Origin: Squalus acanthias
Lineage: Eukaryota
NCBI GenBank assembly: GCA_030390025.1
Contig: CM059432.1
Location: 145,080,001 to 145,144,000, forward strand
Length of the DNA: 64,000 nt
Direction of reading: 5' to 3'
The notes below the pieces were generated by a model that worked only from the letters and a program-made list of their open reading frames with translations, ran no database searches and was not told the origin of the DNA. A program made the translations under genes and the position numbers. This document shows positions 2,765 through 29,100 of the stretch, piece after piece (positions within the stretch are counted from its first letter, which is position 1; each line of letters starts with the position of its first letter).

Positions 2765-4066
2765 CATAGAGTCATAACGGCACAGAAGGAGGCCATTCGG
2801 CCCATCGAGTCCGTGCCAGCTCTCAGTCCCATTCCCTCACTCTATCCCCGTAGCCCTGCAAGTTTATTTCCCTCAATTAAACTGATATTAAACTAACCGG
2901 CCTATAGTTACTAGGATTGTCTTTACACCCTTTCTTGAACAATGGTGTCACATTTGCCACTTTCCAATCCTCAGGCACCTCCCCCGCGTCTAGGGAAGAT
3001 TGGAAAATTATGGCAAGCCCTTCCGCTATCTCCTCCCCCAATTCCCTTAGCAACCTGGGATGCAAGCCATCTGGACCAGGCAACTTATCCGCTCTAAGCA
3101 TACCCAGTCTTTCTAGTACATTCTGTATCAATTTTCACCCCTTCCATTGCTTCTACCTTTTCCACTTCTACCAATATTTTGTCAGCATCCACCTCCTTAG
3201 TAAACAACGATACAAAGTACTCTGAGTATTCTAGCCTTGCCCTGCGCCTCTAAGCATATATCACCTTCTTTGTCCCTAATAGGCCCCACCCCGCCTCTTA
3301 CTACCCACTTACAGTTTACATGCCGGTAGAAGATTTTTGGGTTCCCTTTTGTTAACCACCATTCTACTCTATATTTTCTCTTTGCCAATCTTATTTTCAT
3401 CTTCACTTCCCCTCTCAATTTATTGTATTTGGTCTGGTTCACCCTTGAAGAATTCACCTGACATTCATCATACACCCTCTTTTTTTGTTTCATCATCTTC
3501 TCTATCTCCCTCGTCATCCAAGGAGCCCTTGCTTTGGTTCCCTTACCCTTCCCTCTTGTTGGAATGTACCTAGCCTGTACTTGGAACATCTCCTCCTTAA
3601 AGATCACCCATTGTTCCGTTATAGTTTTTCCTGTCAGTCTTTGGTACCATTTTACTCTGGCTAGATCCTTTCGCATCCCATTGAAGTTAGCCCTATTCCA
3701 GTTTAGAAGTTCCACTCTAGATTGTTCCTTGTTCCTCTCCATTGCTAATCTAAATCTTATGATACAATGATCACTCGTACCCAAGTGTTCTCCCACAGAC
3801 ACTTGGTCGACCTGGCCCACCTCATTCCCCAGCACCAGATCGAGCAATGCCTCCTTCCTAGTTGGGCCAAGAACATACTGGTCAAGGAACTTCTCCTGAA
3901 CACATTTCAGAAATTCCTCCCCCTCCTTTCCCTTTACCCTAGCATTAGCCCAATCGATATTTGGGTAATTAAAGTCCCCCAATATCACCACTCTATAGCT
4001 CTTGCATGTCTGTGATTTCCCTGCAGATTTGCTCCTCTACTTCCCTTTCACTATTTGGAGGCCTGT
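2765..4066 (-). mobile_element. CR1 LINE fragment with internal deletion
   Basis: ORFs 3197-3991 (GDFNYP, LDLVL, SDH: APE endonuclease end) and 2877-3131 (PGPDGLHP, NYRPVSL); CR1 3' UTR at ~2765-2875. Confidence 0.9.
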
Positions 4067-15561: not shown

Positions 15562-17012
15562 ATAGAAAAATAGGAGCAGGAGTAGGTCATTCGGCCCTTC
15601 GAGCCTGCTCCGCCATTCAATATGATCATGGTTGATCCTCTATCTCAAAACCATATTCCCGCTCTCTCCCCATACCCCTTGATGCCTTTTGCGTCTAGAA
15701 ATCTATCTATCTTCTTCTTAAATATATTCAGTGACTTGGCCTCCACAGCCTTCTGTGGTAGAGAATTCCACAGGTTCACCACCCTCTGAGTGAAGAAATT
15801 TCTCCTCATCTCAGTCCTAAATGTCCTACCCCGTATCCTGAGATTGTGACTCCCTCGTTCTAGAGCCCCCAGCCAGGGGAAAGATCCTCCCTGCATCCAG
15901 TCTGTCTAGCCCTGTCAGAATGTTATATGTTTCAATGAGAACCCCTCTCATTCTTCTAAACTCTAGTGAATACAGGCCTATTCGACCCAATATCTCCTCA
16001 TACGACAGTCCTGCCATCCCAGGAATCAGTCTGGTGAACCTTCGCTGCACTCCCTCTACGCAAGTATATCCTTTCTTAGGTAAGGAGACCAAAACTGCAC
16101 ACAGTACTCCAGGTGTGGTCTCACCAAGGCCCTGTAAAACTGTAGTAAGACATTCTTGCTCCTGTACTCAAATCCTCTTGCAATGAAGGCCAACATACCA
16201 TTTGCCTTCCTAACTGCTTGCTGCACCTGCATGTTCGCTTTCAATGACTGGTGTACAAGGACACTCAGGTCCCTTTGTACATCAACATTTCCCAATCTAT
16301 CACCATTTAAATAATACTCTGCCTTTCTGTTTTTCCTACCGAAGTGGATAACTTCACATTTATCCACGTTATACTGCATCTGCCGTGTATTTGCCCACTC
16401 ACTCAACTTGTCTAAATCACCTTGAAGCCTCTTTGCATCCTCCTCACAACTCACAGTCCCACCTAGTTTTGTGTCATCAGCAAACTTGGAAATATTACAT
16501 TTGGTTCCCTCATCCAAATCATTGATATATATTGTGAATAGCGGGGGCCCAAGCACTGATCCCTGCAGTACCCCACTAGTCATCACCTGCCACCCCAAAA
16601 AAGACCCATTTATTCCTACTCTCTGTTTCCTGTCTGTTATCCAATTTTCAATCCATGCCAGTATATTACCCCCAATCCCATGTGCTTTAATTTTGCACAC
16701 TAACCTCTTATGTGGGACTTTATCAAAGGCCTTCTGAAAATCCAAATACACCACATCCACTGGTTCTCCCTTATCTATTGTACCAGTTACATCCTCAAAA
16801 AACTCCAGTAGGTTTGTCAAACACGATTTCCCTTTCATAAATCCATGTTGAATTTGTCTAATCCCGTTGATATTTTCTAAGTGTCCTGTTATCACATCCT
16901 TTATAATAGAGTCTAGCATTTTCCCTACTATGATGTTAGGCTAACTGGTCTGTAGTTCACTGTTTTCTCCCTCCCTCCTTTTTTAAATAGTGGGGTTACA
17001 TTTGACACCCTC

Positions 17013-20000
17013 TGTCGTAAGAATGAGCCTTACGCGTGGTGAACTTAAAGTAAGCTTTAATCAACTAAAAAGGTGCTACATACAAAAGAGGTCTTACTCT
17101 ATGCCTCTCCAGGATCCAACTGATCAGTCCAGTATTTATCCTGGACTAATCACAGGAAGTGATGCAATAAAGTTCGAGTCACAGGAAGCTGTATTGTGTT
17201 ACCACATTCTCCCCCCCCCCCAAAAGATTAGGAGGCCGGGATGCTCCCTCCATTTCGTAGCCGCTGGACGAGGGAGAGCCGCACCCGTTTGGGTTCTCGT
17301 AGCGGTAGAGGGCCCCTAGCCCGTTTACCCGCCGCGGGCCGTGGACCAGAGTCCGAGTGATCCAGCCCGCTCTGTGAGGGGTCAGGACGATCCTGACTGT
17401 GTACTGGTGCCTGAACGGGTGTCGGGCAGGGCTGTGGCAGATCCGTTTCTGAGCGTACGGTACGGGGTGGATCGTGGCTGCACGTGCGAGCCCCGACGGG
17501 CTCATAGTCAGTCTGCCCCAGGTCGGCACGCTGGAGTGAGGTACCAGCCGGCGTCAGATCCAGATCGTGATGAGAGGCACCTGGCGAGCCCAGAGATGTG
17601 CCTGATACAATATCATCCCCTGGTGTCCCTCTATGTTTCGGCGGGCAGGGAGCCAGATCCCGCAATGACACGGTAGATTCCCGACCGTCAGGATACCGAA
17701 TATAGGCGTAGGTAGGGTTGACGTCAGTGAGCTCAACCTCATCTACCAGGGGGTCATTCTTAGACGCCCGGACATATCTTCGGAGTAGCACTGGTCCCGG
17801 TGCAGTCAGCCACGACGGGAGAGATATCCCATAGGATGAGCGACGCTGAAATCGGAAGAACCGTTCATGAGGCGTCGTATTTGTGGCGGTCGAAAGGAGG
17901 GACCGTGTGGAGTGTAATGCGTCTGGAAGTACTGCTTCCCATTGCTGGTTGGGTAGGCCCCGAGATCTCAAAGCCAGACGTACCGCATTCCAGATGATAG
18001 CGTTATAACACTCGACTTGCCCATTCCTGACCGGATGATAAGGCGTCGTTTTGCTGGCAGCAATACCCCGTTCCGAGAGATAGGCCTTGAGTTCTCCTGA
18101 CATAAAAGAAGGGCCCCAATCCGAATGAACATAGGATGCCATGCCACAGAAAGCAAATACCTGCTCAAGGCAGCTGATAACCGTGGTCGTCAGCATATTG
18201 GGGCAGGGAAAGGCAAATGGAAAACGGGAATACTCATCGACCATGGTCAATAGATAAGTGTTGCGAGTTGAAGAGGGCAACGGCCCCTTAAAATCAATGC
18301 TAAGCCGTTGCATTGGCTGGGTCGTATGTATGAGTATACCACCCGAGGGGCGGAAAAACTGAGGTTTCAATTCCGCACAGACTCTGCCGTCCGAGCACAT
18401 CTTCTTTACATCCCCAGTAGAGAATGGGAGATTTCGGGACCGCACGAAGTGTAGCATGCGAGTAACGCCCGGATGACACAACCCATCATGGATGTCTACG
18501 AGCGTAGAGGGTGCCATGGCGGAGCAGAATGCTCGTGTGAGGGTATCCGGAGCCACATTCTCCTTGCCAGGTCGATAGTGGATGGTGTAACCAAAAGAGG
18601 CCAATTCCAGCCGCCAAAGCTGGATTTTATTATTTTTAATTTTGGTCCGTTTTCGATTATCGAGCATGAAGGCGACCGATCGCTGGTCCGTGATTAAGGT
18701 AAAGTGCTGGCGAGCTAGGAGATGACTCCACTTCCGTACTGCCTCTATGATGGCTGTAGCTTCTTTCTCGACTGGAGGATAATGTAGCTCAGCCCCTTGA
18801 AAAGTCCTGGACAAAAATGCCACCGGACGACCTTCCTGATTCAGAGTGGCCGAGATCGCCACCTCCGAGGCATCACACTCAACAACAAAAGGAAGACTCT
18901 CATCGATGGAGTGAAGAGCCGCTTTCTCCAACTGTTTTTTCAGGAGGTTAAAGGCTGCAACAGCTGCTGTGTCTAGTGGGAATGTGCTGGCCTTCAGTAG
19001 AGGTTGGATTCGGTCCGAGAAGTTAGGAATCCATTTAGCATAGTATGCAAACAGGCCGAGGGCCCGGCGCAAGGAGGCCGGATTCTTAGGTGGCGGGAGT
19101 TCTTGGAGTGGGCGAAGCCTTTCAGGGTCAGGCTTAATGATGCCATTGCCCACACAATAGCCAAGGATGTTAATGGTTGGTTGTGACTCAATGGATTTAG
19201 CCGCATTTAATGTCAAATTACGGTGCTGGAGTGCATCCCAAAATCGTTGGAGATTGGCGTCATGTTCCCGCTGATTGCGACCTGCGACAGTAATATTGTC
19301 CAGATAAGGAAACGTATCCTTCAAGTCTTCCTGTTTGACCAGGTCATCCATTGCTCGCTGGAAGACAGCCACTCCATTAGTGACCCCAAAGGGGAGGCGA
19401 CGAAATTGATACAGCCGTCCATTGGCTTCAAAGGCCGTATACTGCTTGTCTGAGACCTTCAAGGGTACCTGATGATAGGCACTTTTCAGATCATATGTTG
19501 AGAACACCGTGTACTCAGCCAGTTTATTAACCATATCATCGATGCGCGGCAATGGGTATGCGTCCAAGTCCGTATATTGATTGATGGTCTGTGAATAGTC
19601 AATGCACAGCCGTTTCTTGTGAGGTTGTAGAGAGTTCTTAACAATAACGACCTGGGCACGCCATGGCGACGAACAAGGCTCGATGATATCCTCTGCTAAA
19701 AGCCGAGAAATCTCAGCCGCAATAAAAGACTGGTCTTCCTGACTGAAACGTCGTGACTTTGTTATAATCGGTTTGCATCGAGGAGGGATACTGGTAAACA
19801 GTGAGGGTTCATCCAGTGAAGCTGCTGACAATGCACAGAACGGTAATCGAGGTAGTATATTAGAAATAGTGAGTTCAGGTTTGGATCCGCCGAACTCAAT
19901 GGTGAGCTTCTTATGCTGCTTTTGAAAATCCAGCCCTAAGATAAGATCACTACATAAGTCCTTGAGCACCGAAAGCCGGGTGGAGGGATACCTGTGACCA

Positions 20001-21456
20001 TTAAGTGTTATTTCAACCATACAAAAGCCAGAAATTCTGGTATTAAGTGATGACTGAGCCATCGCAATTGCCTGGTCCGATGGGAAAACATGTAGCTTTA
20101 ACTCTGCAACAATCTGTTCCCTAATGAAACTATCAGTGCTACCTGAGTCAATTAAGGCATCTAAAGTATGTCCATTAATTGATGCTTTTGTAGCTGCATG
20201 GAATAGGTTCTGAGGACAAGCAGCTGTAATTGGTGTCGTTGCACAAAGAGTGGCTGAAACTCTAGGTGTGTTTCTTCGAGAGGAAACCCAAGAGGAAGCA
20301 CGATAGATTTTAGCCGGAACATCTTGATAGGCCCTTACCGGGGCAGTTCGGTAGGACTTAGCTTGATAAGCCCTCGTAGAGGCTCTTGATAGGCAAACCT
20401 TTGCAAAATGACCCTTTTTGTTGCAATGACTGCAAAACGCATTGCGAGCAGGGCAGAATTTCCGAGGGTGAAACTCATCACCACAAAAGAAGCATTTCTT
20501 AGATTGCCAAGAGGCTGCCACAGTGGGGTCATCATCCTCTTCATCAGTGAAGTCATCAGATTGATCGTCAGGGATAAAGACCTCCCTAATAGAGTTCACC
20601 TGTGGCCTTTTAAATTGCCTGACTGTAGTTAAGGCAGTAGACCGAGGTCTGGGCACTGTATAAAGGTCTGCATTTCTTTTTGCCAGATCTAGAGAGCAAG
20701 CCATGTCATAAGCTCTCTGAAGCTCAAGTGTCTTACTTTCCAGTAGACGCTGGCGTATAAATGGGGAGGCAAGCCCGCAGATGAAAGCATCACGGATCAT
20801 TTCTTCACGGTACAGCTCAGCTGAGGCCGCCTGAAAGTTACAGTCCATACTAAGTCTGCGAAGCTCTTGGAGGAATTTATCAATGGATTCCTCCGGCCCT
20901 TGTTGGGCTGTAGCTAGTAGATGTCTGGCATAGACCTCATTCGGTGTCTTAGTATATAGTCTCTTAAGCGTCCGAATTGCCTCCTCGTAACTGCCCCATT
21001 CCTCCACATACTGAAATACATTCGGGGTGACACAGTTGATGAGTATCCGCAACTTTGAGTCATCATCAGCCTTGCAATATTCAAGAAAATTGTCAAACGT
21101 GCGATACCAGTGTTTCCACACCTTACCGGCTGCTGGGGTGTTTGGGTCCAAGTCAAGACGCGATGGTTTAAGGATGTTTTCCATGATGGGTGATTCCCTG
21201 GATCCTTAGTTCCGAGTTCGTCCAAAAAGTTTGAGTGCGAAGTTTTTCAAAGTTGATTAAATTGTCGTAAGAATGAGCCTTACGCGTGATGAACTTAAAG
21301 TAAGCTTTAATCAACTAAAAAGGTGCTACATACAAAAGAGGTCTTACTCTATGCCTCTCCAGGATCCAACTGATCAGTCCAGTATTTATGCAGGACTAAT
21401 CACAGGAAGTGATGCAATAAAGTTCGAGTCACAGGAAGCTGTATTGTGTTACCACA
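17013..21456 (-). mobile_element. Full-length Gypsy/Metaviridae LTR retrotransposon (Mag-like), 4444 bp
   Basis: Two 194-bp TG...CA LTRs (17013-17206, 21263-21456; 3 mismatches), 5-bp TSD CCCTC, PPT at 17207-17221; empty site in other units. Confidence 0.97.
17228..21184 (-). CDS. Gag-Pol polyprotein, 1318 aa (Gag with two Cys/His knuckles, PR, RT, RNase H, IN)
   Basis: CFFCGDEFHPRKFC and CSHCNKKGHFAKVC; LIDSGS; DLKSAYHQ, PFG, YLDN; CDAS/EKEA/TDQ; integrase IDFKG...SDWG...QVE in PR-RT-RH-IN order. Confidence 0.95.
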   Translation of the reverse strand: MENILKPSRLDLDPNTPAAGKVWKHWYRTFDNFLEYCKADDDSKLRILINCVTPNVFQYVEEWGSYEEAIRTLKRLYTKTPNEVYARHLLATAQQGPEESIDKFLQELRRLSMDCNFQAASAELYREEMIRDAFICGLASPFIRQRLLESKTLELQRAYDMACSLDLAKRNADLYTVPRPRSTALTTVRQFKRPQVNSIREVFIPDDQSDDFTDEEDDDPTVAASWQSKKCFFCGDEFHPRKFCPARNAFCSHCNKKGHFAKVCLSRASTRAYQAKSYRTAPVRAYQDVPAKIYRASSWVSSRRNTPRVSATLCATTPITAACPQNLFHAATKASINGHTLDALIDSGSTDSFIREQIVAELKLHVFPSDQAIAMAQSSLNTRISGFCMVEITLNGHRYPSTRLSVLKDLCSDLILGLDFQKQHKKLTIEFGGSKPELTISNILPRLPFCALSAASLDEPSLFTSIPPRCKPIITKSRRFSQEDQSFIAAEISRLLAEDIIEPCSSPWRAQVVIVKNSLQPHKKRLCIDYSQTINQYTDLDAYPLPRIDDMVNKLAEYTVFSTYDLKSAYHQVPLKVSDKQYTAFEANGRLYQFRRLPFGVTNGVAVFQRAMDDLVKQEDLKDTFPYLDNITVAGRNQREHDANLQRFWDALQHRNLTLNAAKSIESQPTINILGYCVGNGIIKPDPERLRPLQELPPPKNPASLRRALGLFAYYAKWIPNFSDRIQPLLKASTFPLDTAAVAAFNLLKKQLEKAALHSIDESLPFVVECDASEVAISATLNQEGRPVAFLSRTFQGAELHYPPVEKEATAIIEAVRKWSHLLARQHFTLITDQRSVAFMLDNRKRTKIKNNKIQLWRLELASFGYTIHYRPGKENVAPDTLTRAFCSAMAPSTLVDIHDGLCHPGVTRMLHFVRSRNLPFSTGDVKKMCSDGRVCAELKPQFFRPSGGILIHTTQPMQRLSIDFKGPLPSSTRNTYLLTMVDEYSRFPFAFPCPNMLTTTVISCLEQVFAFCGMASYVHSDWGPSFMSGELKAYLSERGIAASKTTPYHPVRNGQVECYNAIIWNAVRLALRSRGLPNQQWEAVLPDALHSTRSLLSTATNTTPHERFFRFQRRSSYGISLPSWLTAPGPVLLRRYVRASKNDPLVDEVELTDVNPTYAYIRYPDGRESTVSLRDLAPCPPKHRGTPGDDIVSGTSLGSPGASHHDLDLTPAGTSLQRADLGQTDYEPVGARTCSHDPPRTVRSETDLPQPCPTPVQAPVHSQDRPDPSQSGLDHSDSGPRPAAGKRARGPLPLREPKRVRLSLVQRLRNGGSIPAS

Positions 21457-22409
21457 CCCTCCAATCTGCAGGAACTGTTCCATAATCTGTAGAATTTTGG
21501 AAGATGACAACCAATGCATCCACTATTTCCATGGCTACCTCTTTTAGTACTCTGGGATGCAGATTATCAGGGCCTAGGGATTTATTGGCTTTCAGTCCCA
21601 TTAATTTCTCCAGCACTATTTTTTTACTAATACTAATTTCCTTTAATTCCTCCTTCTCACTAGACCCTTGGTTCCTCAGCATTTCTGGAAAGTTATTTGT
21701 GTCCTCTTCCGTGAAGACAGAACCAAAAGTATTTGTTTAATTGCTCAGCCATTTCCTTGTTCCCCATTATAAATTCTCCTGTTTCTGACTGTAAGGGACC
21801 TACATTTGTCTTCACTAATCTTTTTCTTTTTACATACTTGGAGAAGGTTTTACAGTCCGCTTTTATGTTCCTTGCAAGTTTACACTCATACTCTATTTCC
21901 CGCCCCCCACCCCCCCCCCCCCGCCACTTAATCAATCCCTTGGTCCTTTATTGCTGAACTCTAAACTGCTCCCAATCCTCAGGCTTGCTACTTTTTCTGG
22001 TAACTTGATATGACTCCTCTTTGGATCTAATTCTATCCTTAATTTATTTTGTTAGCCATGGTTGGGCCACTTTTCCTTTTATGTTTTTGCACCAGAAAGG
22101 AATGTATAACTGTTGCAATTCATGCATTCGTTCCTTAAATGTTAGCCATTGCTTATCCACCATCATGCCTTTTAATGAAGCTCCACAATCTATCATAGCC
22201 AACTCCCTCCTCATACCTTCGTAGTTTCCTTTGTTTAGATTTAGGACCCTAGTTTCGGATTGGATTACTTCACTTTCCATCTTAATGAAGGTGTTCTCCA
22301 GGGGACCACTGCTCTTTTTGATATATATTAATGACCTGGATCGTGCCATAATTTCAAAGTTTTCAGATGACAAAAAACTCAGAAATGTAGTAAATAGTGA
22401 GGAGGATAG

Positions 22410-23221: not shown

Positions 23222-25652
23222 ATAGTAACAGACTTCAGGAGGACAGAGACAGACTGGTGAAACGGGCAGACACAAGGCAGATGAAATTTAATGCAGAGAA
23301 ATGTGAAGTGATTCATTTTGGTAGGAAGAATGAGGAGAGGCAATATGAACTAAATGGTACAATTTTAAAGAGGGGTAACAGAGAGACCTGGGAGTGTATG
23401 TACACATGTCTTTAAAGGTGGCAGGACAAGTTGAGAAGGCTGTTAAAAAAGCATATGGGATCCTTGATGTTATAAATAGAGGCATAGAGTACAACAGAAA
23501 GGATGTTATGCTAAACTTTTATAAAACACAGCACAGGCCCCAAATTATTGTGACCAATTCTGGGCACCACACTTTAAGAAGGATGTCAAGGCCTTAAAGA
23601 AGGTGCAAAGGAGATTTACTAGAACAGTAATAGGGATGAGGGACTTCAGTTACGTGGAGAGACTGGAGAAGCTGGGCTGTTCTCCTTCGAGCAGAGAAGG
23701 TTAAGGGGAGATTTAATAGAGATGTTCAAAATTATGAAGGGTTTTGATAAAATAAGAAGGAATAGTTTCCAGTGGCAGAAGGGTCCGTAACCAAAGGCCA
23801 CAGATTTAAGGTAATTGGCAAAAGAACCATGAGGGAAAAAAATTACACAGCATGTTGTTGTGATCTGGAATGCAATGCCTGTAAGGGTGGTGGAAGCAGA
23901 TTCAATAATTTTCAAAATTGAATTGGATAAATACTTGAAGGGGAAAAATCTACAGTGCTATGGGGAAAGAGCAGGGGAGTAGGACTAATTGGATAGCTCT
24001 TGCAAAGAGCTGGCACAGGCACGATGGGCCAAATGGCATATAATGGCTGTAAGATTCTATGATGCATCAACAATTGGAATAGATGTACCATGCATATCAC
24101 AGTCTCTCCTCTTGAGCTTTGCAGAGCCACAGTAACACACAGGGGGCACTCACCACAACCCCCACTAGTTGGACTATTTTCAAGACAGTGAGTAGCTCTG
24201 GATCCCCAGGTGAATCTGTAAGCAACACATTACTGGGAACAAAAATAAACTTTCATTTGGAAAGGCATGGGTTAAATCAAGGAGAGCCAGCATGGATTTG
24301 TTAAAGGTAAATCGTGTCTGACTAACTTGATTGAACTCTTTGATGAGGTAACAGAGACGGTTGATCAAGGTAGTGCTGTTGTGTATCTGGACTTTTGGAA
24401 AGCATTCCCTTTTGTTCACTCCTGGTGCAGAGACTCACCAGTTGGGAGCTCATATCTAGAAATCCTGTCTGGGCTGCCCATGGTTTTCCATCTATCAAAG
24501 TGAATGGGAATGCAAACAGGAAGTTACCTTCAAGGGTTTAGAAAGTGTCACGTGTCCAAATACCGATCAAAAACAACAACTTGCATTGATATTGCTCCTT
24601 GAGCAGGGAAACACGTCCCAAGTTCTTACAGGAGCGTTATTATACACCTACCAGTCTTAATCAATTAGACAACATCATTGCCCATTGGTGTGGGATCTTG
24701 GCTTAGTTGGCTTCTCCCTCCCCAATTCACAAGGACAGCTCTTCCCTTAACCACCTCTCCCCATCCACAAGGGCTCTCTGTCCCCTTAACCGCCAACTCC
24801 CCCAACTGTTCAGAGCACGCACTCGCCTTGAGCACGATCCTTGGTGGCGGGTGCTCGCCATAGTTCAGCGAGGTCTATCTGGTCACTTGATGCAGCGTTT
24901 CATGCCCGGAGCAGCGGGATCTCAGAGCGGGGAGGAGGCCGCGGCGATGGAGCAGCATAGAGCGGGAGCGGCAACTTTCAGCGGGCAGCTTCTTAACGCG
25001 GAAACCCACACACACTGTGCCCAAGAACATGGATTGGGAGCTCGGGCAGGAGTTACCGACCCGAACAGACCCTGCTCAGCTTAGCAGGAGCCCACACACA
25101 CACAGAGCTTTTACACTGGGGCGCTGTGGAGGAGGGAAAGGTTCGGTGGGAAAGTAAAAATCACAACAAAAATACCTTTAATTCAGATAAATGCGGGTTC
25201 AGAGCATCTACTTCCTTGTCAAATGTAAATTCAAATATGTCAGGGATCTAACACTGGGGAGAGTGAAACAAATTCAGTGTGAAGTTTGATCCAGTCTTGG
25301 GAGAAAGGTTTTCCTCCTCGCCCCTGTCTGACTGCACACATCTCCCAGCTGCTGCAACCAAACAGGATAACTCGGCGCAATTCGTTTGTGATTTTAAAAG
25401 TGAGCAATCCTAAATTGAATTTTGAATTCACAATTTCCGCGAGTGTGAAAGCAATGTGCGAGGTGACTATCGCACAGAGAGTAACTGACGGTCTCACATT
25501 TTATAATGTGGGAGGGGGGACTGTAAACTGGGCGGGTTTTATGCCGACAGGAAATTCGCAGCCTCGGCCTGATAGGGGAGGGGGACTCGGGTCCTTCACA
25601 TTGTTATCAGTGGGGACTAACCGAGTAACGAGGGAGGCTTGGTCACTGCACG

Positions 25653-26075
25653 ATGTTCTGGGTGATTGTGGCGTTATTTTTACCCTGTACGTGTTTCTAT
25701 TTTTTAAAATGTTATTTATGTCCATTCATTGTGCAGCAAATGTTCAGCATTTTCAAATCAGGTCATTTTGTGCATTTTTTCCAGGTGGGTGTTTTGCTCA
25801 GACTTTGACACAGACTCCAATATCGATTACAAAGGAGGCCACTAAAAGTGCCAGATTTCAGTGTGCGATCAGCGGAGGGAGCAACAGAATCCACTGGTAC
25901 CAGCAAAGGCCGGGTCAGGCGCCCGCCAGAATACTCTATTATGATAGCAGCGCCATTCGGGATCCGGAATTCAGCTCCCGGTTCAAAGCAGATAAGAAAG
26001 GCGATGTGTGCACTTTAATAATTAATGACATCGCGAAGAATGACACTGCCACTTATTACTGTGCCTATTGGGACA
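25653..26075 (+). CDS. TRGV: Intact TCR V segment V3: leader 25653-25686, V exon 25785-26075
   Basis: MFWVIVALFLP+GTACGT donor, TTCCAG acceptor; CGCFA|QTLTQ...FQC...IHWYQQ...TATYYCAYWD. Confidence 0.93.
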
Positions 26076-26114
26076 CACAGTGCTCAACAGAGGCAGAAAC
26101 CCTTGACAAAAACC
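26076..26114 (+). other. Canonical 23-RSS (V3)
   Basis: CACAGTG + 23 nt + ACAAAAACC. Confidence 0.95.
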
Positions 26115-29100
26115 CGGCGCGTTGCTTCGCTCCTCTTTCACTTACCACAGAAAAAAAAACTAGAACCAAATAGCGCCTTTAACGTAGTAAAACGTCCCAA
26201 GGCGCTTCACAGGAGCGATCATCAAACAACATTTGACAGCGAGCCAGACTTTAATCAAACTTTTATGTTTCAAATGTACAACAGAAATTCTGGCAGAGTT
26301 TCATATTTGTCCAGGGCTCAAAGGGTTAACATATGAGGATAAGTTGCATAAAAGTTGGCTTGTATTCCCCCTGAGTTACGAAGGTTGAGAGGCGACCTAC
26401 TTTAACCGAGATATTTAACATGATTAAGGGATTGGATAGATAACAGGGAAACTATTTCCTCTGGTGGGAGAGTCCAGAACCTTTAAAATTAGAGCCAGGC
26501 CGTTCAGGGGGTGATGTCAGGAAGCACTTCTTCACACAAAGGGTCGGGGAAATCTGGAACTCTCTCCCTCAAAAGGCCGTGGCTGCTGGGGGACAATTGG
26601 AGCTTTCAAGGCTGAGATTGATAGATTTCTGTTGGGTAAGGGTATCAAGGGATATGGAGCAAAGGAGAGTAATCAGATTGAACGGCTGAACAGGCTCGAG
26701 GGGCTGAATGGCCTCCTCCTGTTCCTACGATACACAATCAGGATAGACATAGTAGACATACAACCCATAACAGATGAGAAGGGTTTACCGGCCCCGGAAT
26801 GGATGGACAAGGGTTGAGGCAGAGCGGTGGTCTTGGATCCCTGCAACCTGCGGCAGTGGTCTCTTCCTCTTTGGTCATCTCCCAAGGCTGGTGGGGGTGT
26901 TAAGCTAAAGCTAGCATGAATCCACTCTGGGGAAGCACTTCCCCTCCCCAACCCCCGAGGAAGACCTTCCCCTCTCTGCAACGCCCCCCGCCCTCCGCGG
27001 CTGGGAAGCTCTTTCCCTCTCTGCCTATTTTTCCCTTTCAGCTGCCCGTTTATATACCTTATTTTGGGGGGTCAGTGGATACCTCACGTCAATCATTTGT
27101 TACCCATTCAATTGTCCAATTACAGGGGAATAAGTACCTATGGCAGATCCCTCCCAGACTCATGAGGTCATTCCTCTGCTTATCTCCTGTTTGGACATCT
27201 TGCACTTTCTCCTAGACAGTTTGTTTATCATAAGGATCCTTACTCGACCGCTTATCAGGCCTAGCTATGGCTGCATGGAGGCCTGTTTCTGCGTTCTGCC
27301 CTTGTAAACGACCTCAGTTCTTTGTGCAACTCCTTATCTGATATGATTGGTTCCTTCTGTGTCATCAGCTGAGCTAGGCAAAACCATTTCTTTTATAAAA
27401 CCATTATTTCTTTTACAATTCATAATTTCTTGCCATTCACGATTTCTTACAACACTAATCCAGGTCAAAATTAATTGACACTGGAAATATATGGGCGAAT
27501 AAATGAGAATCCCAGCACGATTTGTTAAAGGCAAATTGTGTGTAACTAACTTGATTGAGTTCCTTCATGAAGTAACATAGAGGGTTGACCAGGGTAGTGC
27601 GGTTGATGTTGTATATATGGGCTTTCAAAAGGCGTTTGATAAAGTACCATATAATAGATTTGTTAGCAAAATTGAAGCCCATGGGATTAAAGGGATAGTG
27701 ACTGCATGGATAAGAAATTGGCTAAGGGACAGAAAGCAGTGGTGAATGAAAACAAAAAATGGTGGAAATACTCAGCAGGTCAGGCAGCATCTGTGGAGAG
27801 AGAAACAGAGTTAACATTTCAGTTCAATGACCAATTTTCAATCCATGCCAGTATATTACCCCCAATCCCATGTGCTTTAACTTTGCACACTAACCTCTTA
27901 TGTGGGACTTTATCAAAGGCCTTTTGAAAATCCAAATACACCACATCCACTGGTTCTCCCTTATCTATTGTACCAGTTACATCCTCAAAAAACTCCAGTA
28001 GGTTTGTCAAACACAATTTCCCTTTCATAAATCCATGTTGAATTTGTCTAATCCCGTTGATATTTTCTAAGTGTCCTGTTATCACATCCTTTACAATAGA
28101 GTCTAGCATTTTCCCTACTATGATGTTAGGCTAACCGGTCTGTAGTTCCCTGTTTTCTCTCTCCCTCCTTTTTTAAATAGTGAGGTTACATTTGCCACCC
28201 TCCAATCTGCAGGAACTGTTCCATAATCTATAGAATTTTGGAAGATGACAACCAATGCATCCACTATTTCCATGGCTACCTCTTTTAGTACTCTGGGATG
28301 CAGATTATCAGTGCCTAGGGATTTATCGGCTTTCAGTCCCATTAATTTCTCCAGCACTATTTTTTTACTAATACTAATTTCCTTTAATTCCTCCTTCTCA
28401 CTGGACCCTTGGTTCCTTAGCATTTCTGGAAAGTTATTTGTGTCCTCTTCCGTGAAGACAGAACCAAAGTATTTGTTTAATTGCTCAGCCATTTCCTTGT
28501 TCCCCATTATAAATTCTCCCGTTTCTGACTGTAAGGGACCTACATTTGTCTTCAGTAATGTTTTTCTTTTTACCTACTTGTAGAAGCTTTTACAGTCCGC
28601 TTTTATGTTCTTTGCAAGTTGACTCTCATACCCGATTTCCCCCCTCTTAATCAATCCCTTGGTCCTTTATTGCTTAACTCTAAACTGCTCCCAATCCTCA
28701 GGCTTGCTACTTTTCTGGTAACTTGATATGACTCCTCTTTGGATCTAATTCTATCCTTAATTTATTTTGTTAGCCATGGTTGGCCAATTTTCCTTTTGTG
28801 TTTTTGCGCCAGAAAGGAATGTATAACTGTTGCAATTCATGCATTCATTCCTTAAATGTTAGCCATTGTCTATCCACCATCATGCCTTTTATTGAAGCTC
28901 CACAATCTATCATAGCCAACTCCCTCCTCATACCTTCGTAGTTTCCTTTGTTTAGATTTAGGACCCTAGTTTCGGATTGGATTACATCACTTTCCATCTT
29001 AATGAAGGTGTTCTCCAGGGGACCACTGCTCTTTCTGAGATATATTAATGACCTGGATCGTGCCATAATTTCAAAGTTTTCAGATGACAAAAAACTCAGA

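Follow-up and report, generated by a model that had tools for sequence, protein, structure and literature searches.

How an LTR retrotransposon that lacks the TGG of a tRNA primer site begins its reverse transcription is the question raised by an element in the window, which is the whole 64,000-nucleotide stretch of Squalus acanthias contig CM059432.1 analysed here. The element (4,444 bp) lies on the minus strand at 21456–17013, and the answer is to be sought at its 5' end. Its 5' LTR (21263–21456) and 3' LTR (17013–17206) are each 194 bp long with TG...CA ends and differ by three mismatches, and they are flanked by a 5 bp target site duplication, GAGGG, with the upstream copy at 21457–21461 and the downstream copy at 17008–17012. 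Between the LTRs, a single gag-pol frame (17228–21205; 1,325 codons from stop to stop, first ATG at 21184) has Pfam domains for Gag with a CCHC knuckle, protease, reverse transcriptase (RT), RNase H and integrase, and a polypurine tract ending in AA (17207–17220) precedes the 3' LTR; all of these features are on the minus strand. The order of protease, RT, RNase H and integrase, together with the TG...CA LTRs, polypurine tract and target site duplication, is that of Ty3/Gypsy elements, and the closest solved structure to the RT is that of Ty3. The first-pass annotation had described the element as non-chromoviral in appearance, and indeed no chromodomain is found in gag-pol (zero Pfam matches at E 0.001).

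The family to which the element belongs (family 1) is young and abundant: identity is 100% in all 150 scored Gag matches, and 1,833 junctions between LTR and primer site in the genome match the 11-mer described below exactly. A second family in the same genome (family 2) has 82% RT identity to family 1 and 624 intact LTR-primer-site junctions. A second family-finding search returned family 2 again, a third family sought in the host genome yielded either nothing or variants of family 2 only, and no relatives were found among viral contigs. Family 1 includes a sublineage in which a duplicated polypurine tract plus LTR 1–37 lies directly before the 3' LTR (L020, L204, L211, L243, L256, L315 and L316). 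The insertion target of the element in the window is LINE sequence within an array of immune-receptor V segments. LINE fragments with RT and endonuclease matches are present at 16056–16940, 21457–22200 and 3197–4036, one LINE fragment is split by the LTR element, and the duplicated V unit includes LINE pieces. The immunoglobulin-type V segments form a tandem array on the plus strand (25283–26173 plus five more copies, at a spacing of 5.9–8.2 kb), and each is followed by a heptamer, a 23-base spacer and a nonamer (at 26076, 32020, 37961, 44859, 51893 and 60108); their YYCAYWD ends suggest T-cell receptor gamma V genes.

After the terminal CA of the 5' LTR there is a one-base spacer, A (21262, minus strand), and then the primer binding site TTTAATCAACT (21251–21261, minus strand), which is without TGG; the earlier statement that a standard tRNA-CCA site is missing, with one A and then an 11-mer following the LTR, is thus correct. 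This 11-mer is the exact complement of AGTTGATTAAA (21316–21306, minus strand), the putative self-primer segment at LTR 141–151, whose last bases are the hexamer ATTAAA, and 44 bases separate the two. The exact complementarity was also part of the original proposal, and a match of at least 11 bases arises in only 2 of 20,000 dinucleotide shuffles of the LTR. The 11-mer is invariant in all 39 fetched loci that have a 5' junction (38 elements), and family 2 has the same 11-mer within a 13-base match. A TATA-like site of putative function (21383–21390, minus strand; LTR 67–74) is 66 nt before the primer, where about 65 nt had been estimated, and family 2 has a perfect TATAAATA at LTR 69. Two small hairpins are predicted on the minus strand, one starting at the first base past the primer (21293–21305) and one at the end of U5 adjoining the LTR end (21266–21284); a helix begins at the first post-primer base in 17 of the 23 families surveyed below, by folding prediction without a shuffle control. 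The 136-nt region as a whole folds no better than its shuffles (z -1.2), so that the signal lies in position and covariation and not in overall stability.

Because there is no TGG, no tRNA 3' end can pair with this site. The best internal tRNA candidate is the D-loop of host tRNA-Ile, which can pair with all 11 bases if one or two G-U pairs are allowed, and a 5' fragment of this tRNA ending in the D-loop might act as the primer. Host genes with such a D-loop do exist, three of the 12 fetched loci being called as tRNA-Ile, but the only exact match among the fetched loci, L228, does not receive a tRNA call. Copying of the commonest form of tRNA-Ile would alter positions 2 and 6 of the primer site together, and there are no such junctions against 1,833 normal ones; single changes at position 2 number two against the same 1,833. 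The primer sites of other families, moreover, follow their own LTRs. The first-pass annotation had named a better-matching host tRNA as a threat to its proposal; in a targeted test, of this tRNA rather than of all small RNAs, the best rival leaves no copying trace, and we regard priming by tRNA-Ile as close to refuted.

Relatives at 46–66% identity are common, and the named ones come from corals, crustaceans, a flatworm and a nematode. The pairing is found in metagenome contigs of the same clade, and the clade is not peculiar to vertebrates. Our survey drew on 93 metagenome and genome-bin loci, with the Gag start in 37 and at least 80 upstream bases in 36. A blind search upstream of the Gag start for the longest inverted repeat returned one of at least 10 bases in 30 of these 36, and six of the 36 were dropped (one unrelated element with TGG, two contigs of insufficient length, two decayed copies whose duplex is damaged, and one case that is unclear). 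With the two host families included, the final set comprises 32 entries in 23 families. The one-base spacer is present in all 32 entries, where it was used as an anchor. The loci L134–L146 are animal retrotransposons with both LTRs in contigs filed as bacterial genome bins, an origin that is probably host contamination.

Covariation across related families had been put forward at the outset as a check on self-priming, and it is clearly seen. Among the 23 families there are 18 different 11-mers. TGG occurs in none of them, and every primer site is paired with the LTR of its own family: of 253 cells in which the primer site is compared with that LTR, 249 are Watson-Crick pairs, one is G-U and three are mismatches. 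At positions 4–13, 223 of 230 cells pair, compared with 135 ± 7 when partners are swapped (0 of 20,000 permutations), a test that is inflated by the relatedness of the families. Pairing continues at positions 14–17 (48 of 92 cells, against 31 ± 4 with partners swapped) and is at background at positions 18–26. Close sisters on the RT tree change in step (L055 and L057; L056 and L059; L071 and L134), and, within a single young family, L059 differs from L063 and L106 by a joint change in its primer site and its two LTRs. The RT tree sets the clade apart from three distant elements, of which two have TGG sites. TGG sites, without such a match to the LTR, are present in four distant elements (identity about 30%). 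In most of the 23 families the bases before the hexamer (21306–21330 in the window) form a T-rich tract followed by AG, which resembles a splice acceptor or an initiator, and the pairing runs across this tract.

G-U pairs are scarce in the duplex, with 1 in 250 pairs compared with 38 in 217 in the predicted U5 helices, although the choice of entries by a Watson-Crick repeat of at least 10 bases is biased against them. From the aligned sequences, this scarcity suggests that the primer site may be rewritten by copying from the primer. Within the two host families we see no compensatory pairs, as four single changes in the primer site are none of them matched in the adjacent LTR. Two further candidates were set aside: an apparent mutation hot spot at positions 14–15, just past the primer site, is mostly one common alternative allele per family among the first 100 matches listed for each, and an A-to-G change at the third-last primer A is present in one LTR only in all nine elements checked, which points to later mutation. 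The same A-to-G change is present in both LTRs of the pair L290 and L291. Together with the fossil read-through insertions described below, the covariation gives strong support to self-priming independent of tRNA, as first proposed for this locus, and we consider it very probable that the element primes itself.

Rearranged copies in the genome provide further insights into where the RNA is cut. In four elements both LTRs are reduced to LTR 1–21 joined to 148–194 via a 5-base homology, two elements are without LTR 133–150 in both LTRs, with a 3-base homology, and L250 and L254 have an inverted U3 end plus two bases in a blunt join to LTR 151–194. In family 2, L207 has a blunt join at the base equivalent to LTR 151. 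All nine of these strong-stop junctions (eight in family 1, one in family 2) have the last primer A as their boundary. With the same search design no such junction is found among nine matches at LTR 160 or 19 matches at LTR 127, the 15 matches at LTR 101 include no pair by coordinates, and the family-2 version of the search has no junction among its 16 matches. Five of the eight family-1 cases derive from one parental rearrangement but have different flanks and internal deletions and, having lost the primer, are probably products of a single round; five of the eight fall in the sublineage with the duplicated polypurine tract. The last primer A is included in all three blunt joins, and these three cases suggest a 10-base core and, at each end of the DNA, an overhang of two bases. 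Most simply read, minus strong-stop DNA stops at LTR 151, its template being severed at that point in the 5' copy; this places the putative cut site at LTR 150/151 or 151/152 (21305–21307, minus strand), and we are fairly confident that cleavage of the 5' copy does take place at the 3' end of the primer.

A second class of aberrant insertion reads through the primer site. A search for family-1 copies differing at the base after the 11-mer gave six loci, in three of which a long stretch of inverted LTR follows, starting at the primer's 3' end and extending to LTR 96–98, 32–43 or 1, and a looser search gave no fourth case. The counterpart search in family 2 gave four loci, three of them independent, which extend to LTR 1 or past the polypurine tract by 126 and 1,454 bases. 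In all six independent insertions the U5 end and the A are followed by inverted LTR that begins at the 3' end of the primer; past the primer site the sequence is that of the LTR and never that of a tRNA. Target duplications are present, exact at 5 bp in five cases and matching at four of five positions in the other, so these copies are products of integration. They leave the length of the primer unfixed, because fold-back of the plus strand, or its annealing to a second RNA, could give the same result. Read-through is found in two of the four elements whose LTRs are without the primer region and in one of about 1,833 normal elements, a difference that fits either a primer that is no longer trimmed or an acceptor RNA that escaped degradation. 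L191 reads into U3 even though its own LTRs lack that sequence, and L205 and L206 read across U3 and the polypurine tract into pol. There are also tiny insertions composed solely of LTR pieces (L194:1319–1667, L313 and L314); L194 is nearly palindromic and has a U3 end on both sides, a hint that integrase accepts two such ends.

Whether the primer is the 5' end of the transcript or lies within it depends on where transcription starts. In the two host families the distance from TATA (at LTR 67–69) to the paired stretch is 66 and 82 nt, and because of this position the start should be near LTR 97–101, some 45–60 bases before the primer; in the element in the window it is predicted at about LTR 97 (TATA + 30; 21358–21362, minus strand). 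The read-through in L189 ends at LTR 96–98, a single case whose end falls inside a 7-of-8 microhomology and near an 8-nt inverted repeat (LTR 62–69 with 92–99) that could pause copying there. Other junctions were sought at the predicted start and only point variants and small indels were seen besides L189; a search for polyadenylated retrocopies found none, and contigs from public sequencing runs, which show neither a start nor an end nor a poly(A) tail, are given no weight here. Judged by eye, only 2 of 23 families have a pyrimidine-purine step at the 5' edge of the duplex, and in most the pairing reaches 1–6 bases upstream of the conserved A at -11 (positions 12–17). TATA-like matches are present in only 5 of 23. 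The initiator-like motif TTAGTT is found at the 5' end of the 11-mer in 4 of 23, this element included, -11 is A in 17 and -10 is G in 20, and the paired stretch ends with AATAAA or ATTAAA in 12 of 23, the other 11 having no canonical hexamer. The first-pass annotation had suggested an internal primer or one from the 3' R; of these the former is favoured by the TATA spacing, the duplex edges and L189, whereas the nine junctions at the primer's 3' end argue against the latter. On balance, the primer seems rather more apt to be internal to the transcript than terminal, probably 40–60 nt inside it.

Two observations in this part of the LTR deserve mention in their own right. At LTR 94 (21363 in the window) the same change is present in both LTRs of five element pairs among 30 matches, with three different bases involved (L320/321, L329/330, L331/332, L333/334 and L337/338), while LTR 95 and 96 are unchanged, and no such point changes in both LTRs are seen at the other LTR positions tested in family 1. 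These may be inherited neutral variants or may mark an error hot spot near the start site. In runs X3, X4, X6 and X7, higher-depth contigs match the family-2 LTR over nothing but its 32-base TATA block (L203:5344–5375), hinting at a further related LTR family in the organisms concerned; the searches for a third family in this genome did not reveal it.

Alongside the pairing, its covariation over 23 families and the genomic junctions at the primer's 3' end, all of which are directly observed, we propose with some reserve that the element probably self-primes from an internal primer, by folding of a stretch of the 5' LTR and cutting of the RNA at the 3' end of that stretch. The 5' copy of the 11-base stretch would fold onto the primer site over a 44-base loop, the RNA would be cut at the stretch's 3' end, probably by the element's own RNase H, and the freed end would be extended. 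With a start about 45 nt upstream of the primer (LTR ~97), the primer would form the 3' terminus of a capped piece of RNA about 55 nt long. The minus strong-stop DNA left by the cut would measure about 45 nt, with its end at LTR 151, and would transfer via the short remaining R. Between 11 and 16 nt of the primer would normally survive to be copied back into the primer site, keeping the two sequences Watson-Crick matched, and where the hexamer is canonical the same duplex may mask the 5' poly(A) signal. Several observations sit less easily with this proposal. The runs of 126 and 1,454 nt past the polypurine tract in L205 and L206 need a template from the 3' end of the RNA, inverted read-through can also arise by fold-back of plus strong-stop DNA and so does not prove a long primer, the host families supply no compensatory pair and the family-2 junction search drew a blank, and the canonical hexamer and the TATA-like site are each confined to the subset of families given above.

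The cut at the primer's 3' end would fit equally well with the plain geometry of Tf1, in which transcription would start at LTR 141 and the primer would be the first 11–17 bases of the RNA. The TTAGTT at the start of the 11-mer in this element and three further families, the preference for A at -11 and G at -10, and the sharp stop of pairing after position 17, as a short primer predicts, all speak for this arrangement. However, pairing in most families passes beyond the A at -11, a pyrimidine-purine edge is rare, the TATA of the host families is 66–82 nt upstream with none about 30 nt upstream, and L189 reaches LTR 96–98; on these grounds we think it unlikely. If some or most cycles instead used a primer from the R at the 3' end, supplied by the same RNA or by one packaged with it and cut after the hexamer, this would explain how L205 and L206 read into pol and how L191 reads into a U3 missing from its own LTRs, and the LTR 94 variants could then mark strong-stop DNAs that reach the cap. 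Yet an intact 5' copy implies strong-stop DNA extending to the cap, and the nine junctions lie at the primer's 3' end instead; annealing of the plus strand to a second RNA accounts for the long read-throughs as well, and LTR 95 and 96 are unaltered in the LTR 94 pairs, so that we judge such a source improbable. It is more improbable still that the duplex merely hides the 5' poly(A) signal while some host RNA primes at the same site. The hexamers in 12 of 23 families, and the position of the partner sequence downstream of the 5' LTR copy only, would be expected if this were so, but about 18 different host primers would be required, G-U pairs are nearly absent, 11 families have no canonical hexamer at the stretch, and neither the concerted change at three sites in L059 nor the junctions at the primer's 3' end would be accounted for.

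The observation is real and well supported, and points to a known mechanism in a new form in a large animal clade. If the clade does prime itself, there is a second and very common self-priming clade in animals, probably with another geometry, and independence from tRNA is neither rare nor bound to chromoviruses. This would bear on whether hairpin or tRNA priming came first, a question raised in PMC3601003 (in its available text). Elements that prime themselves should also escape silencing by tRNA 3' fragments, and their mode of priming accounts for the failure of annotation based on tRNAs to locate a primer site in them. The aberrant insertions used here allow intermediates of reverse transcription to be mapped to the single base from an assembly alone, in any high-copy family.

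As to clade, short LTRs and spread in marine invertebrates are shared with Cigr-1 or Mag C (SURL). Cigr-1 is said to have a single frame of about 1,200 codons, and the Cigr-1 and Oikopleura Tor papers reportedly discuss priming, so an earlier mention for this clade is possible. The Mag C training set has a mean LTR of 174 bp (PMC3601003, available text) and the Cigr-1 and Mag C (SURL) Ty3/Gypsy elements are widespread in marine invertebrates (PMC6238403, available text), although by eye the LTR ends in the window do not match the Mag C end motifs as given in the accessible part of PMC3601003. Saci2/lennie was considered and rejected, having a 4-bp duplication and a tRNA-Leu site where there is a 5-bp duplication here. 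The accessible parts of PMC3601003 and PMC6238403 do not mention priming in the Cigr-1 and Mag C clades. Nor is self-priming in this clade described in the literature searched, the scope of which did not extend to key older papers, including the primary ones on Tf1; the available text of PMC3601003, PMC6934838, PMC6238403, PMC12471100, PMC4558846, PMC5371799, PMC5006619, PMC3587641 and PMC8220671 holds no such description. In dictyostelid Skipper the TGG primer site is lost and unconventional priming has been proposed, and judging from the part of PMC5006619 that is available our element differs in two respects, as Skipper is a chromovirus and the polypyrimidine stretch that it carries is complementary to nothing in its LTR.

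To our knowledge self-priming has been worked out solely in fission-yeast Tf1, and predicted in relatives of Tf1 and in a few plant lineages. In Tf1 the primer site pairs with the first 11 bases, and the RNase H cut falls between bases 11 and 12 (PMC7175516, available text), and Tj1, Tf2 and Tosmo have self-priming of the Tf1 type, chromodomains and a 'pretzel' structure (available text of PMC4600332, PMC5341516 and bioRxiv 10.1101/2022.12.06.519325). Self-priming has been predicted for plant Tcn1 (Ty3/Gypsy) and for the Ty1/Copia elements TAR, Houba and Osr-1 from complementarity of at least 10 bases to the 5' LTR (PMC6317226, available text); these are also outside Tf1/sushi, but belong to other lineages and hosts, and the accessible text of PMC6317226 gives no evidence from covariation or intermediates of the kind presented here. 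As in Tf1/Tf2, Tj1, Tosmo and Tf1/sushi elements generally, there is no tRNA site in our element and the primer site complements about 11 bases of its own 5' LTR, and the nine genomic junctions point, as in the Tf1 group, to a cut in the RNA at the 3' end of the self-primer. Unlike the Tf1/sushi group, it has no chromodomain match; unlike in Tf1, its primer is probably internal rather than the first 11 bases and across the clade often overlaps a poly(A) hexamer. The three-duplex 'pretzel' is not evident here, local U5 hairpins being predicted and no conserved ungapped pairing being found across families beyond position 17, and the loop in this clade is only 24–68 nt, unlike that of the Tf1 group. 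The case for the strongest form of our proposal seems to us evenly balanced: that an animal-wide non-chromoviral clade evolved self-priming apart from Tf1, using an internal poly(A)-signal segment whose one short hairpin masks the 5' signal, releases a long capped primer on being cut and is written back into the primer site in each cycle, with intermediates kept as aberrant insertions. On its sequence features, the element would work like Tf1 and yet, by the chromodomain test, is not a member of Tf1/sushi.
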